A DNA stretch of 11,785 nt from a virus (IMGVR_UViG_2695420482_000004), one strand, 5' to 3'. Positions 852 to 8,000 are shown, counted from the stretch's first letter. Notes: generated by a model from the sequence alone, not told the origin. Numbers and translations are program-made.

Positions 852-2069
852 ATGAAACTTCATGAGATGAAGCAAAAACGAAACACCATTGCAAAGGATA
901 TGCGTGCACTGCATGAAAAAATTGGTGATAACGCATGGACTGATGAGCAACGGGCAGAGTGGAACAGGGCGAAAGCTGAGCTGGATGCGCTGGATGAGCA
1001 AATCGCCCGTGAAGAAGAGTTGCGCCGTCAGGATCAGGCATATGTGGATGAGTCCGGGCCGGAAGAGCGCCAGAATAATGAGGCGGAGAACGGGAAAAAG
1101 GCGGTGGAAGAGAAGCGTGCTGCGGCATTTAACCGTTTTCTGCGTGCCGGATTTGCAGAACTGAATGCTGAAGAGCGTAATCTGATGCGTGAACTGCGGG
1201 CTCAGAGTGTAACAACGGATTCTCAGGGCGGATATACGGTGCCCACGCAGATGCGTAACAAAATCATTGACACCATGAAGGCTTATGGCGGGATTGCCAG
1301 TGTGGCGCAACTTCTGACCACATCAACCGGGCAGGATATCACCTGGTCAACGTCTGATGGCACGACTGAAGAGGGCGAACTGCTGGCGGAAAATACAGCC
1401 GCAACGGAACAGGATGTGACGTTCGGGACCGCTATTCTGGGGGCTAAAAAGCTGTCATCAAAAATAATTCGTGTGTCCAATGAGCTGCTCCAGGACAGTG
1501 GGGTGGATATTGAATCTTATCTGGCAAACCGTATTGCCCAGCGTATTGGTCGTGGAGAGGCAAAATATCTGGTTCAGGGGACCGGAACGGGATCACCGTT
1601 ACAGCCAAAAGGGCTGGCAGCGTCGGTGACGGGAACCATCCAGACTGCAGCCTCTGCCGCTTTCACCTGGAAAGAAATGAATGCCCTGAAACATGCCATT
1701 GATCCGGCATATCGTGGTGGGCCGAAATACCGCTGGGCATTCAATGATGCCACATTGCAGACTATTGAAGAGATGGAGGATGGACAGAAACGCCCGTTAT
1801 GGCTGCCGGATATTGCAGGCGGTACGCCGGCTACTGTGCTGGGGATCCCTTATGTTATTGATCAGGCTATTGACGGGATTGGTACCGGAAAAAAATTCAT
1901 TTTCCTGGGGGATTTCAACCGCTTTATCATTCGCCGCGTTACTTATATGGAACTGAAACGTCTGGTTGAGCGTTATGCTGAGTTTGATCAGGTGGCATTT
2001 CTGGCTTTCCATCGTTTTGACTGTGTGCTGGAAGATGTGGCAGCCATCAAGGCGCTCACTGGCAAATAA
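852..2069 (+). CDS. Major capsid protein, HK97 fold, with N-terminal delta (scaffolding) domain
   Basis: 405-aa ORF. Residues 1-120 are charged, K/E/R-rich and coiled-coil-like (delta domain), followed by the GGYTVP motif typical of the mature HK97-fold start. Position directly after the protease matches HK97-type head modules. The nearest upstream AGGA is about 11 nt from the ATG. Confidence 0.9.
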   Translation: MKLHEMKQKRNTIAKDMRALHEKIGDNAWTDEQRAEWNRAKAELDALDEQIAREEELRRQDQAYVDESGPEERQNNEAENGKKAVEEKRAAAFNRFLRAGFAELNAEERNLMRELRAQSVTTDSQGGYTVPTQMRNKIIDTMKAYGGIASVAQLLTTSTGQDITWSTSDGTTEEGELLAENTAATEQDVTFGTAILGAKKLSSKIIRVSNELLQDSGVDIESYLANRIAQRIGRGEAKYLVQGTGTGSPLQPKGLAASVTGTIQTAASAAFTWKEMNALKHAIDPAYRGGPKYRWAFNDATLQTIEEMEDGQKRPLWLPDIAGGTPATVLGIPYVIDQAIDGIGTGKKFIFLGDFNRFIIRRVTYMELKRLVERYAEFDQVAFLAFHRFDCVLEDVAAIKALTGK

Positions 2070-2090
2070 CCACTCGTTGTTCAGTTACAG

Positions 2091-2112
2091 ACCGCGCCGA
2101 CGCGGTTTTTTT
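2091..2112 (+). terminator. Intrinsic terminator-like hairpin plus T7 tract after the major capsid gene
   Basis: ACCGCG (2091-2096), loop CCGA, CGCGGT (2101-2106), then seven T (2106-2112), 22 nt after the capsid stop. A second 6-bp GC hairpin (GCCCGC 2115-2120 / GCGGGC 2129-2134) lies directly before the connector RBS. Confidence 0.55.
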
Positions 2113-2145
2113 ATGCCCGCACAGTGTTGCGGGCAGGAGTTTCTG

Positions 2146-2463
2146 ATGGCAGCAATAGTGGAAAAACTCAGGGCGCAGTGCCGTATTGATACAGATGATG
2201 CAACTGATGATGAGTTACTGATGCTGTATTTCCGGGCTGCCTGCCGCAAGGCAGAAAATTTTATCAACCGTAAGCTTTATGAGGAGACGGTGCCGGAAGG
2301 TGATCCTGAAGGGGTGCTTATAGCTGATGATGTTTTGCTGGCGCTCATGTTGCTGGTCGGGCACTGGTACGAAAACCGGGAAAATTCCTCAGATGTCAGC
2401 AAGGCACCAGTCCCGTTTGGTTTTTCTTCTCTGCTGGAGCCTTATCGTTTTATTCCTTTGTAG
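2146..2463 (+). CDS. Head-tail connector protein (HK97 gp6-like)
   Basis: Start chosen at ATG 2146 with AGGAG at 2135-2139 (6-nt spacer). The longer ORF from 1966 overlaps the capsid gene and the terminator, and the in-frame ATG at 2113 sits in the T-tract with no RBS. 105-aa acidic protein with the LLxLYxxAA / WYENRE pattern typical of gp6-like connectors. Confidence 0.7.
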   Translation: MAAIVEKLRAQCRIDTDDATDDELLMLYFRAACRKAENFINRKLYEETVPEGDPEGVLIADDVLLALMLLVGHWYENRENSSDVSKAPVPFGFSSLLEPYRFIPL

Positions 2464-3597: not shown

Positions 3598-3617
3598 GGT
3601 CATTAATGATTTTACCC

Positions 3618-3645
3618 ACCCGCCGCTGGCGGGTTTTTTTATTTT
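3618..3645 (+). terminator. Intrinsic terminator-like hairpin plus T-tract upstream of the major tail protein gene
   Basis: ACCCGCC (3618-3624), loop GCT, GGCGGGT (3628-3634), then T7 (3634-3640) and ATTTT. It is followed by AGGAG (3647-3651) and ATG 3658. Confidence 0.5.
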
Positions 3646-5058: not shown

Positions 5059-5080
5059 AACCGCTTCGGCGGTTTTTTTT
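5059..5080 (+). terminator. Intrinsic terminator-like hairpin plus T8 tract between GT and the tape measure gene
   Basis: AACCGC (5059-5064), loop TTCG, GCGGTT (5069-5074), with a T8 run at 5073-5080, directly before the tape measure RBS. Confidence 0.5.
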
Positions 5081-5090
5081 CGTCCGGAGA

Positions 5091-8000
5091 ATGAGTGTGG
5101 CGACATTACGTGAACTGATTATTAAAATCTCGGCAAATTCCCGGTCATTCCAGTCAGAGATCTCCCGGGCTTCGCGTATGGGGCAGGATTACTACCGTAC
5201 CATGCAGAACGGAGGCCGGCAGTCCGCTGCTGCATCCCGTGAAATGCGGCGTGCACTGGCAGAAGTGACGGATCAGATAAATACAGCTAAATCTTCGGCA
5301 CTGAATATGGCGGGGGCATTTGCCGGGGCTTTTGCTACCGGTCATCTTATTTCTCTCGCCGATGAGTGGAATTCAGTAAATGCCCGTCTGAAGCAGGCCT
5401 CACAGTCCAGTGATGATTTTCAGGTATCACAACGTGAATTAATGGCGATCAGCCAGAGAACGGGGACGGCGTTTTCTGATAACGCCAGCCTTTTTGCCCG
5501 TTCTGCAGCTTCCATGCGGGAGTATGGTTACAGTTCTGAGGAGGTACTGAAAGTCACCGAGGCGATCTCCACGGGCCTGAAATTATCCGGTGCCAGTACA
5601 GCAGAAGCCAGTTCGGTGATCACGCAGTTCAGTCAGGCACTGGCGCAGGGAGTGCTGCGCGGTGAAGAGTTTAACTCGGTGAATGAGAGCGGTGATCGTG
5701 TTATTCGTGCGCTGGCTGCGGGAATGGGCGTTGCCCGTAAGGATCTGAAGGCCATGGCGGATAACGGAAAACTAACCGCCGATAAGGTTGTTCCTGCACT
5801 GATTAGTCAGCTTGGGGCGTTGCGTGATGAATATGCAGCAATGCCTGATACGGTTTCATCCTCTGCAACCAAAGTTGAAAACGCCTTTATGGCCTGGGTT
5901 GGTGGTGCGAACGAGGCAAGCGGAGTGACGAAGACGCTCTCCGGGGTGCTGAATGGTCTTGCAGGCAATATTGATACCGTGGCAACCGCTGCCGGTGCTC
6001 TGGTTGCCGTCGGGGTAGCCCGATATTTTGGCAATATGGCGTCTTCTGCTGGATCTGCAACTGCCGGATTAATTACTGCAGCCAGAAACGAAGTGGCTCT
6101 TGCTGAAGCGCAACTTCGGGGGACACAGATAGCAACCGCCAGGGCGCGTGCGGCGGTTTATCGTGCGCAACAGGCGGTTGTTGCTGCTCGCGGTACCGAA
6201 AGGCAGGCCGCAGCAGAAGCGAAGCTGACAGCTGCTCAGGCGTCACTTACCCGTAATATTGCGGCCAGAACAGCGGCACAGACAACGCTGAATACTGTCA
6301 CGTCAGTGGGGAGTCGTCTGTTAAGTGGTGCGCTGGGGTTGGTTGGTGGTGTGCCGGGACTCGTCATGCTGGGGGCGACGGCCTGGTACACGATGTATCA
6401 GAATCAGGAGCAGGCCAGAGAATCTGCACGCCAGTATGCCGCAACAATCGACGAAATTCGCCAGAAAACGTCGGCAATGTCGCTTCCTGAAGCGTCAGAT
6501 AATGAGGAAAAGACGCGGCAGGCACTTGATGAGCAAAACAGGTTAATTGACGAGCAGAAAAGTAAGATTAAATCCTTACAGGAAAAAATTGCTGGCTATC
6601 AGTATGTGCTGGCAAACCCGGGCTGGACAACCGATAACGGTTTTATGATTAACCACATGACGTCGGTAAAAACTGTCACAGAAGGGCTTGCAGAAGCAAC
6701 AAATCAACTGGCAGTTGAACAGTCCCGTCTCACACAAATGCAGGGCAAAGCGCAATCCATTCAGGATGTGCTTGCCGGGCTGGAGGAGCGACGGGTAGCG
6801 TTGATCCGTCAACAGGCCGCGGAACAAAACAAAGCGTATCAGTCCCTGTTGATCATGAATGGGCAGCATACCGAGTTTAATCGCCTTCTCGGGCTCGGTA
6901 ATGAATTACTTCAGCAGCGACAGGGGCTGGTGAATGTACCGTTACGGCTACCACAGGCAACCCTGGATGATAAACAGCAGACTGCACTGAATAACAGCGA
7001 GCGCGAACTGGCTCTGTCCCGCCTGAAGGGGGAAGCCCGTGAGCGTGCCCGCCTGGGTTATGCTGCGGATGATCTCGGCTTTGTGGGAGAGGCGTATCAG
7101 ACAGCCAGACAGAATTATATCAATAACTCACTGGATGCCTGGCGAAATAACCAGGCAAATAAACCCAAAGCGCATAAAAAGACCGAAGCGGAAAAAACAG
7201 AAGATATTTATAAACGGCTGATTAAACAGCAAAAAGAACAAATAGCACTGGCAGGGCAGAATACTGAACTGGCTAAGATGAAATATCAGGTCAGTCAGGG
7301 CGAATTATCAACCCTGTCAGAAGCGCAGAAAAAAACGCTTTTGCAGAATGCAGCACTCATCGACCAGAAAAAGATTCGTGAGCAGCTTGCTGCGTATGAA
7401 AGCAGCCTGGCGGACAGTAATGCCAGTGCCCGGGCATCTGACGACGCGCAGTTACTGGGATATGGTGAAGGCTCACGGATGCGTGAACGACTCCAGGAAA
7501 TGTGGAGTATCCGGCATGAGTTTGAGCAGAAAAATAACGAGCTTCTGAGACAGTATCAGGCCGGAGAAATTGAAGAAGCCCTGTGGAAACAGGAGAAAGA
7601 ACTGAATAAAAAATATCTGGAAGAGCGTCTCAGCGATCAGCAGGATTATTATGCAAAGGCCGATGCTTTACGTAATAACTGGAATGCAGGACTCCAGGAG
7701 GGGCTGACCAACTGGGCAGACAGTGCCACCGATTATGCTTCGCAGGCGGCAGATGCTGTCGTTTCCACTATGGACGGACTGGTATCAAATATTTCCGATG
7801 CACTGGCCGGAAATGTTGTGGACTGGAGAAACTGGGGGAGTTCAGTTCTCCGGGAAGTTTCAAAAATTCTGATGAATGCGGCCATTGTTAACGGACTGAA
7901 GTCACTCTCCGGTGCCGGAGGGTGGCTTGGTACGGTCGGCGGATGGATTTCGGGGGCGGTGGCAAACGCAAAAGGTGGTGTTTACACATCGGCAAATCTG

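Follow-up and report, generated by a model that had tools for sequence, protein, structure and literature searches.

Tandem hairpins between the capsid and head-tail adaptor genes of enterobacterial prophages: conservation, covariation, and a candidate role in differential expression

The DNA analyzed here, a stretch of 11,785 nucleotides that we call the window, is part of a lambdoid prophage that encodes the antiterminator Q. It is 99.9% identical to Escherichia phage Evi, and the same holds for many E. coli prophages. The locus under study (350 nt) was present in 714 of 5426 complete E. coli genomes (about 13%), and it was chromosomal in every case. The Evi genome contains the Q antiterminator, the S/R/Rz lysis genes, an HK97-type head module, and lambda-type tail genes. 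Within the late operon, the gene for the abundant major capsid protein is followed by that for the adaptor Ad1, the first among the low-copy neck genes, which starts at the ATG at 2146 (Table 1). A preliminary description of this DNA had called the latter a connector gene, which holds in the sense of a gp6-like head-tail adaptor (PF05135) and not in that of a portal protein.

Table 1. Features of the window on either side of the capsid-adaptor junction and further along the late operon.
Feature	Positions	Strand	Description
Major capsid protein gene, HK97 fold	852..2069	+	405-aa ORF; Pfam PF05065 Phage_capsid, E = 2e-70; major capsid protein in the Evi annotation
Hairpin 1, intrinsic-terminator stem	2090..2107	+	7 bp (6 Watson-Crick + G2090.U2107), CCGA tetraloop
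Terminator U-tract (T7)	2106..2112	+	Sole single-stranded stretch between hairpins 1 and 2
Hairpin 2	2114..2135	+	8-bp stem UGCCCGCA/UGCGGGCA; loop CAGUGU 2122-2127; -18.5 kcal/mol
Shine-Dalgarno (SD) AGGAG of the adaptor gene	2135..2139	+	Abuts the hairpin 2 stem
Head-tail adaptor Ad1 (gp6-like) gene	2146..2463	+	Pfam PF05135, E = 5.7e-14; "Ad1 adapter protein" in the Evi annotation
Second terminator-like hairpin + T7, before the major tail gene	3616..3640	+	Terminator scan; no second hairpin; covariance model 18.5 bits
Third terminator-like hairpin + T8, before the tape-measure gene	5059..5082	+	Terminator scan; no second hairpin; covariance model 20.5 bits

The capsid gene ends with a TAA codon (2067-2069), and 20 nt downstream begins hairpin 1, which has the canonical anatomy of an intrinsic terminator at 2090-2112: a GC-rich stem, a 4-nt loop, and a U run, lying on the plus strand 3' of a stop codon. 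The stem is built from the pairs G2090-U2107, A2091-U2106, C2092-G2105, C2093-G2104, G2094-C2103, C2095-G2102, and G2096-C2101, 5 of the 7 being G-C, and it closes on the loop at 2097-2100 with a folding energy of -8.7 to -10.7 kcal/mol. A consensus terminator scan of the window ranked this hairpin second. The presence of a terminator-like hairpin with a T7 tract after the capsid gene, as given in the preliminary description, is thereby borne out. Among the relatives described below, the CCGC/GCGG core of the stem is invariant, and covariation is therefore uninformative about hairpin 1 either way. Its loops are of the GNRA or UNCG type (GAAA, GUAA, UUCG, or UCCG) or slightly longer (5-6 nt), and the U-tract counts 6-8 U in all 45 distinct sequences. 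The spacer between the capsid stop codon and hairpin 1 measures 20-45 nt and shows no conservation.

Because its stem is short, hairpin 1 together with the U7 tract is probably a leaky (partial) intrinsic terminator. Intrinsic terminators are ignored by Q-modified polymerase in lambda, and because the Evi genome is lambdoid and carries Q, the late transcription of an Evi-type prophage is presumably Q-antiterminated, if lambda biology is a guide. With Q encoded, read-through may be the lytic rule rather than a regulated event; hairpin 1 may then terminate little under Q-modified polymerase and matter chiefly in the prophage state, or as a structure at the 3' end. The late operon as a whole carries 3 terminator-like hairpins with T7-T8 runs on the plus strand, each of them intergenic, and a second hairpin is found only at the first. 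A comparable set is annotated in the HK97 record.

A single unpaired A separates the U7 tract of the window from the stem of hairpin 2. The preliminary description reported here a 6-bp GC stem that ended 1 nt before the AGGAG. Its coordinates are correct, in that GCCCGC (2115-2120) pairs with GCGGGC (2129-2134), and this GC core is extended to 8 bp by the pairs U2114-A2135 and A2121-U2128. The gap to the AGGAG is 0 nt rather than 1, the first A of the SD being the nucleotide that closes the stem. A2135 is also the only SD nucleotide inside the strong stem, while the remaining GGAG can form no more than weak pairs with the U-tract. At -18.5 versus -8.7 to -10.7 kcal/mol, the stability of hairpin 2 is roughly double that of hairpin 1.

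In the 0-2 nt 3' of the stem of hairpin 2, no U run is found, and hairpin 2 is therefore not considered a terminator. It has been taken for one: the SfV GenBank record gives the label "putative rho-independent terminator" to 5547-5584 (2431-2468 in our locus L007), a region that comprises the SfV hairpin 2 with the SD and the downstream GGUUUUAU, and misses the canonical hairpin 1 with its U7 just upstream. Some unrelated phages (L133, L135, and L152) indeed have a true U run after the second of 2 stems. That the junction consists of tandem terminators, with hairpin 2 as the second intrinsic terminator, is nevertheless scarcely credible, given that the stem of the window is followed by AGGAGUUUCUG, that the terminator scan makes no call there, and that in all relatives the stem is followed by the SD and not by a U-tract. 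Tandems of a terminator plus a GCCCGC-stem hairpin were seen at other structural-gene junctions (L133, L135, L152, L174, L197, and L198), such as upstream of a major tail gene or in the gap that separates the prohead protease and capsid genes of other phage lineages. The second stem at those sites usually has its own U run, which makes them true tandem terminators.

Folding of a 101-nt region gave a z-score of -3.3, and none of 200 shuffles folded as well. The 11.8-kb window has only 2 sites (hairpin 2 and the terminator at 3618) at which a perfect stem reaches 7 bp or more, includes 6 or more G-C pairs, and closes on a loop of 3-8 nt, while dinucleotide shuffles contain a mean of 0.49 such perfect GC-rich stems per window. 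This excess on one sequence is only modestly above chance, and the decisive support comes from conservation and covariation in relatives. Two other features of the region were considered and rejected. In the single-sequence minimum free energy fold, the 5' flank of hairpin 1 forms a long-range helix with the adaptor start region, yet this helix is absent from the alignment consensus, and the flanks are unconserved; no promoter was called near 2070-2146.

Relatives were gathered by their capsid protein alone, blind to the motif, which yielded 45 distinct sequences with 66-100% amino acid identity. Tandem hairpins were present in 87 of 87 loci from IMG/VR and a phage collection whose capsid protein is at least 69% identical. 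A scan of GTDB with one genome per species returned 32 loci, and the same layout was found in all 24 that stem from Enterobacterales, across genera that include Mangrovibacter, Citrobacter, Kosakonia, Atlantibacter, Kluyvera, Buttiauxella, Edwardsiella, Lonsdalea, Serratia, Phytobacter, Proteus, Morganella, Providencia, Mixta, Rouxiella, and Symbiopectobacterium. The order is common to all: a short hairpin with the CCGC/GCGG core, 6-8 U, the stable hairpin 2, the SD, and the ATG. Hairpin 2 sets in 0-2 nt past the U run, and the SD follows its stem within 0-3 nt in all relatives but one (5 nt, in a Morganella psychrotolerans prophage). Conservation of the stems, which had been put forward as a test of the preliminary description, was thus observed in every enterobacterial relative sampled by capsid, and hairpin 2 moreover shows the compensatory changes described below.

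Outside the Enterobacterales, the tandem is absent. Relatives from Halomonas, Achromobacter, Cupriavidus, Endozoicomonas, and Aeromonas, as well as Ralstonia phage Dina and a phage recorded as a Synechococcus phage, have either no spacer at this position or one GC hairpin without a U-tract. Among more distant enteric phages, a lone canonical terminator is present in Klebsiella KLB28 (39% identity) and in Serratia Stoker (33%). We built a covariance model on the 45-sequence alignment, and it found exactly one strong match per phage locus, with scores of 46-78 bits. The whole Evi genome likewise contained one strong match, and strong matches in phages always lay at the capsid-to-adaptor junction. 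This occurrence, one match in Evi and one per related locus, speaks against membership in a dispersed repeat family of the REP/BIME type.

Covariation was counted on the 45 distinct sequences aligned blind to the motif. The cells of hairpin 2 are paired in 94.9% of cases, and those of the whole structure in 95.6%, versus 29-52% when the partner column is slid. Five pairs of hairpin 2 change on both sides, in 21 cells, and none of 500 column shuffles reached either the covariation score or the percentage paired. Changes include C-G to U-A or U.G, with compensatory examples at columns 34/55 and 36/53 (C-G to U-A) and at columns 29/60 (A-U to G-C). Besides GCCCGC/GCGGGC, the stem occurs as GCCCGUC/GACGGGC, and the stems of Proteus (GCCUGCGAUCA/UGGUCGCAGG), Morganella (GCCUGUGGUC/GGCCACAGG), and Kluyvera (GCCCGUCA/UGACGGGC) are unlike that of the window and fold equally well. 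Across the relatives, the loop measures 3-13 nt, the stem 7-15 bp, and the folding energy lies between -14 and -23 kcal/mol, with loop sequence and stem length varying freely. The alignment thus identifies hairpin 2 as a conserved structured RNA, under selection for its structure rather than its sequence.

The pattern of substitutions also points to the strand. Hairpin 2 contains 43 G.U or U.G cells, each of which would read as an A.C mismatch on the minus strand; selection therefore acts on the plus-strand RNA rather than on a palindrome in the DNA or an antisense transcript. A DNA palindrome serving as an operator was rejected because the spacing of the arms and the length of the stem vary, and because G.U pairs work on the plus strand only. 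For a minus-strand RNA, there is no T run after either stem on that strand, and the G.U cells favor the plus strand.

A pattern scan of IMG/VR detected the same element behind a second capsid lineage, that of phiP27, whose capsid protein is about 24% identical to that of the window. This raises a different explanation, in which the blocks are mainly a module boundary, kept for the recombinational swapping of head and neck-tail modules, and the hairpins have no regulatory role. In phages that combine a phiP27-type capsid with a window-type adaptor, homology to the window sets in precisely at 2102 or 2107, which places it in the 3' arm of hairpin 1 or in the U-tract (examples are L097, L127, L131, L139, L170, and L185), and one E. 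coli genome (strain 06-00048, hit H108) has the same start, at about 2107. On the other side, window-type sequence in L042, L045, and L052 (at about 2755-2800) ends after ...UGCGGGCA, at the equivalent of 2135, and continues with an SfV-type SD and adaptor. From these breakpoints at 2102/2107 and 2135, the conserved blocks flanking hairpin 2 are therefore sites of past head/neck module exchange. As the main reason for the existence of the element, we nevertheless deem this quite improbable. The compensatory and G.U-only substitutions in hairpin 2 argue for selection on RNA pairing and not on sequence identity, the Proteus and Morganella stems keep their structure despite sharing little sequence, and recombination at a conserved functional site would be an expected by-product rather than an alternative.

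In the phiP27-type loci themselves (L092, L126, L147, which is phiP27, L166, and L200), the TAA of the capsid gene lies within the loop of hairpin 1, in the sequence ...GCC GCU GCG UAA UGCGG U8 (for instance, around 1690-1730 in L147). A ribosome finishing the capsid gene would therefore melt the terminator stem, and read-through in these phages could be dependent on capsid translation.

The foot of hairpin 2 also holds an ATG at 2113 that shares its frame with the adaptor start (2146), and no stop codon interrupts this frame as far back as a TTG at 1966. Gene callers could consequently extend the adaptor by 11 or more residues, and many relatives present the same miscalling hazard through an in-frame ATG within ...GGGCAUGGAG. 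A genuine small ORF or N-terminal extension starting from the RUG at the hairpin foot was rejected: its frame relative to the adaptor is 0, 1, or 2 across relatives, and the resulting product would be a peptide of 3-35 amino acids or an in-frame fusion, with a stop codon in the loop in one variant. The conserved sequence at 2102-2116, G(U7)RU|G with its tract of 7 U, fits the consensus elemental pause signal (G-10 Y-1 G+1), and such a signal might be the reason why the RUG at the foot is invariant.

The geometry of the junction invites comparison with standby sites, the single-stranded surfaces offered to the 30S subunit upstream of an SD. These have been modeled by the relation As = 15 + P + D - H with a quadratic penalty, fitted to experiments, and in synthetic 5' UTRs smaller values of P + D - H went with lower measured translation (Espah Borujeni et al. 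2014, PMC3936740). The junction has the parts of such a standby-site module, namely a hairpin that lies 5' of the SD and excludes the 16S-binding site, with distal and proximal single-stranded flanks. Applied to the window (H = 11, D = 8, P = 0), the formula of PMC3936740 gives As = 12 and a penalty of 3.3 kcal/mol, corresponding to a predicted 4.4-fold reduction of initiation. Across the relatives, the predicted reduction has a median of 6-fold and a range of 2-34-fold.

From these structures, we infer termination and read-through at the first hairpin, and translational and stabilizing effects at the second. The sequence between 2089 and 2139 would be a two-part cis-acting element of the late mRNA that sets the step in expression from the capsid protein (hundreds of copies per virion) to the neck genes (about a dozen). 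In the first part, hairpin 1 with its U7 would end a share of the transcripts just past the capsid gene and leave them with a protected 3' end. In the second, hairpin 2 fills the region between the U-tract and the adaptor SD with no spacer, which would leave the 30S subunit almost without a single-stranded standby surface upstream of the SD. Hairpin 2 would also set the U-tract opposite the purines of the SD, where weak U-A and U.G pairs can lengthen the helix. On transcripts that continue, initiation at the adaptor gene would be reduced several-fold. Finally, hairpin 2 would halt 3'-to-5' exonucleases, and the capsid segment would outlive the segment downstream. The most likely effect of the hairpin pair is to hold the adaptor at a far lower level than the capsid protein. 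The more specific proposal, that it is a bipartite differential-expression element made of a leaky terminator and a hairpin flush with the ribosome-binding site that serves as clamp and barrier, is put forward tentatively, as we would place it just short of an even chance.

Several points count against this proposal. The SDs concerned are strong (GGAG, GGAGG), and a weaker SD would be a simpler route to less translation. The flush spacing could stem from the compaction of phage genomes, and the tape-measure gene, which is also low-copy, is preceded by a terminator and has no clamp hairpin. By analogy with lambda, the first part may hardly terminate during lytic growth with Q present.

Whether the U-tract is itself part of the clamp was approached by folding. 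An RNAalifold consensus extended hairpin 2 by 5 pairs between the U-tract and the SD (U-A or U.G) that were present in 11-12 of 12 diverse sequences, and in partition-function (ensemble) folds the SD is paired to the U-tract in most relatives. In the window, this extension is broken by an A.G mismatch. The probability that the SD is unpaired was computed as 0.45 in the window, and it is similarly low at control junctions without hairpin 2, so that this computation does not discriminate. The predicted pairing is a weak signal, as a U run opposite a purine-rich SD always looks pairable. It is doubtful that the junction forms a previously undescribed, dual-use riboregulator, in which the U-tract of the terminator doubles as an anti-SD (or as a landing site for S1 or Hfq) and the clamp of hairpin 2 joins the two. 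If it did, a single module of 50 nt would set both the share of transcripts that continue and the translation of each, and would constitute a portable "stoichiometry step" exchanged by phages along with head or neck modules.

A protein could also read the element in trans, with hairpin 2 and the U-tract forming the site for a phage translational repressor of the adaptor, or with host Hfq or S1 binding the U-tract. A stem, a U-rich linker, and a stem beside an SD resemble known Hfq sites, and the 4 pairs at the foot of the stem (U-A, G-C, C-G, and C-G), together with the preceding U run, are nearly invariant in sequence. The free variation of the loop (3-13 nt) and of the stem length (7-15 bp) is unlike a sequence-specific operator, and no candidate protein was identified, which makes a site of this type very improbable.

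The proposed clamp has to be weighed most carefully against a pure nuclease barrier, in which hairpin 2 has no direct effect on translation and the operon, under Q, is a single transcript. Here, the strong hairpin would stop 3'-to-5' exonucleases, so that the capsid segment accumulates, or would cap the 5' end of the downstream fragment after RNase E cleavage in the U-tract; a U-rich single strand between two stems is a classic context for RNase E sites. Cleavage by RNase III was rejected, as the stem is too short at 8-9 bp. A barrier would account for the roughly twofold stability of hairpin 2 over hairpin 1 and for the conservation of stability and position alone, without loop sequence or stem length, and Q is present in the genome. 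It also agrees with the situation in Achromobacter, Cupriavidus, Aeromonas, and HK97, which keep one strong post-capsid hairpin without a canonical U-tract (HK97 has UUUU only); from these non-enteric relatives and HK97, the strong stem would therefore be the more ancient feature. What a barrier does not require is the invariant contact with the SD, at 0-3 nt in all relatives but one, and in its 5'-cap version it would stabilize the low-copy segment, which seems needless. Taken as the sole role of hairpin 2, a barrier is possible but on the whole unlikely, even though the nuclease-barrier and translational roles appear to fit the sequence and model data about as well as each other. The suggestion in the preliminary description that the hairpins tune a low-copy gene on read-through transcripts therefore stands in part: it fits the geometry and the predictions of the standby-site model, and the barrier fits about as well.

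The large difference in output between capsid (hundreds) and neck proteins (a dozen) from one operon is usually put down, loosely, to a "terminator after the capsid gene." At this step, a compact, structure-selected module of two hairpins can now be defined, which about 13% of complete E. coli genomes carry and which recurs in prophages across the Enterobacterales. Should it work as proposed, with hairpin 1 as a leaky terminator and hairpin 2 as a clamp and barrier, it would provide a natural, transferable part for setting expression ratios inside operons, and it would mark, in mosaic phage genomes, where head and neck modules meet. A literature search found no transcript, 3'-end, half-life, or translation measurements for Evi-type or related phages.

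The same junction, from capsid to gp6-like adaptor in an HK97-type head module, occurs in HK97 (genes 5/6), SfV (orf5/6), and Klebsiella KLB28. SfV carries the same tandem element as the window, and HK97 resembles the window in that terminator-like hairpins also lie around its major tail gene. A single post-capsid hairpin, where the window has 2, sets HK97, KLB28, and Serratia phage Stoker apart. In GenBank, putative terminators are marked at this junction for HK97, SfV, and KLB28, and none of the 3 records shows 2 hairpins or a conserved second stem. Existing records are thus inconsistent in their annotation of this junction, and that of SfV marks the wrong hairpin as the terminator. Our literature search returned no description of a conserved, covarying second hairpin; the original HK97, SfV, and phiP27 papers were outside its reach, and an earlier mention there is possible. 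On the present evidence, post-capsid terminator-like hairpins are familiar, while a conserved, covarying stem between U-tract and SD, recurring behind 2 capsid lineages, was not found described.

In HK97 (L214, 1186-1222) and in the Achromobacter and Cupriavidus loci (L238, L240, and L245), the single hairpin lies between a G-rich, SD-like run (GGAGG, GGGG) and the ATG of the adaptor, which follows 8-10 nt past the stem with no SD after it. This placement resembles that in T4 genes 25 and 38, where a hairpin occupies the spacer between SD and AUG.

A near-identical sequence, ...GCGG U7 GUGCCCGYGUUAUGGCGGGC..., is found at the junction of the isrK terminator and C4 in P1-like immunity loci (Rfam RF01394 and RF01695), and these isrK/C4 junctions score 42-44 bits with the covariance model built here. 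Loci of this kind (RF01394, RF01695, and RF03163) were encountered in L112 (3238-3407) and in L090, L100, L103, L120, L122, L124, L125, L144, L150, L157, and L186. The context and fold of the window differ, in that the GGCGGG strand of the C4 model pairs with the distant 3' end of C4. An Rfam 15 covariance search of 1800-2500 on both strands gave nothing relevant at E <= 10, and even at that threshold the window has no isrK or C4 match. We therefore rejected a C4/isrK-like antisense RNA: the similarity is local, the C4 fold depends on pairing with a distant strand, and the remainder of the RNA is missing from the window.

Among better-studied systems, phages T7 and T3 have an intrinsic-type terminator, T-phi, after capsid gene 10, and their tail genes are expressed by read-through, in a graded manner. 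T-phi differs from the element of the window in that it acts on a phage RNA polymerase, consists of a single hairpin, and has no second stem abutting a ribosome-binding site. Intercistronic stem-loops that follow a major-subunit gene and make the upstream mRNA segment more abundant or more stable than the one downstream are known from the papA and fimA pilus operons and from the REP sequences of malE-malF. REP sequences form a repeated host family with its own consensus and hundreds of copies, and pap has a defined RNase E cut; the element described here is single-copy per phage and appears to differ from REP in sequence. The plan of the junction is the same as that of the standby-site modules (Espah Borujeni et al. 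2014, PMC3936740), with the U7 tract as the distal strand and a proximal strand of 0 nt. Those modules were synthetic 5' UTRs, whereas the window presents a natural intercistronic site, in which the distal strand is the U-tract of a terminator.
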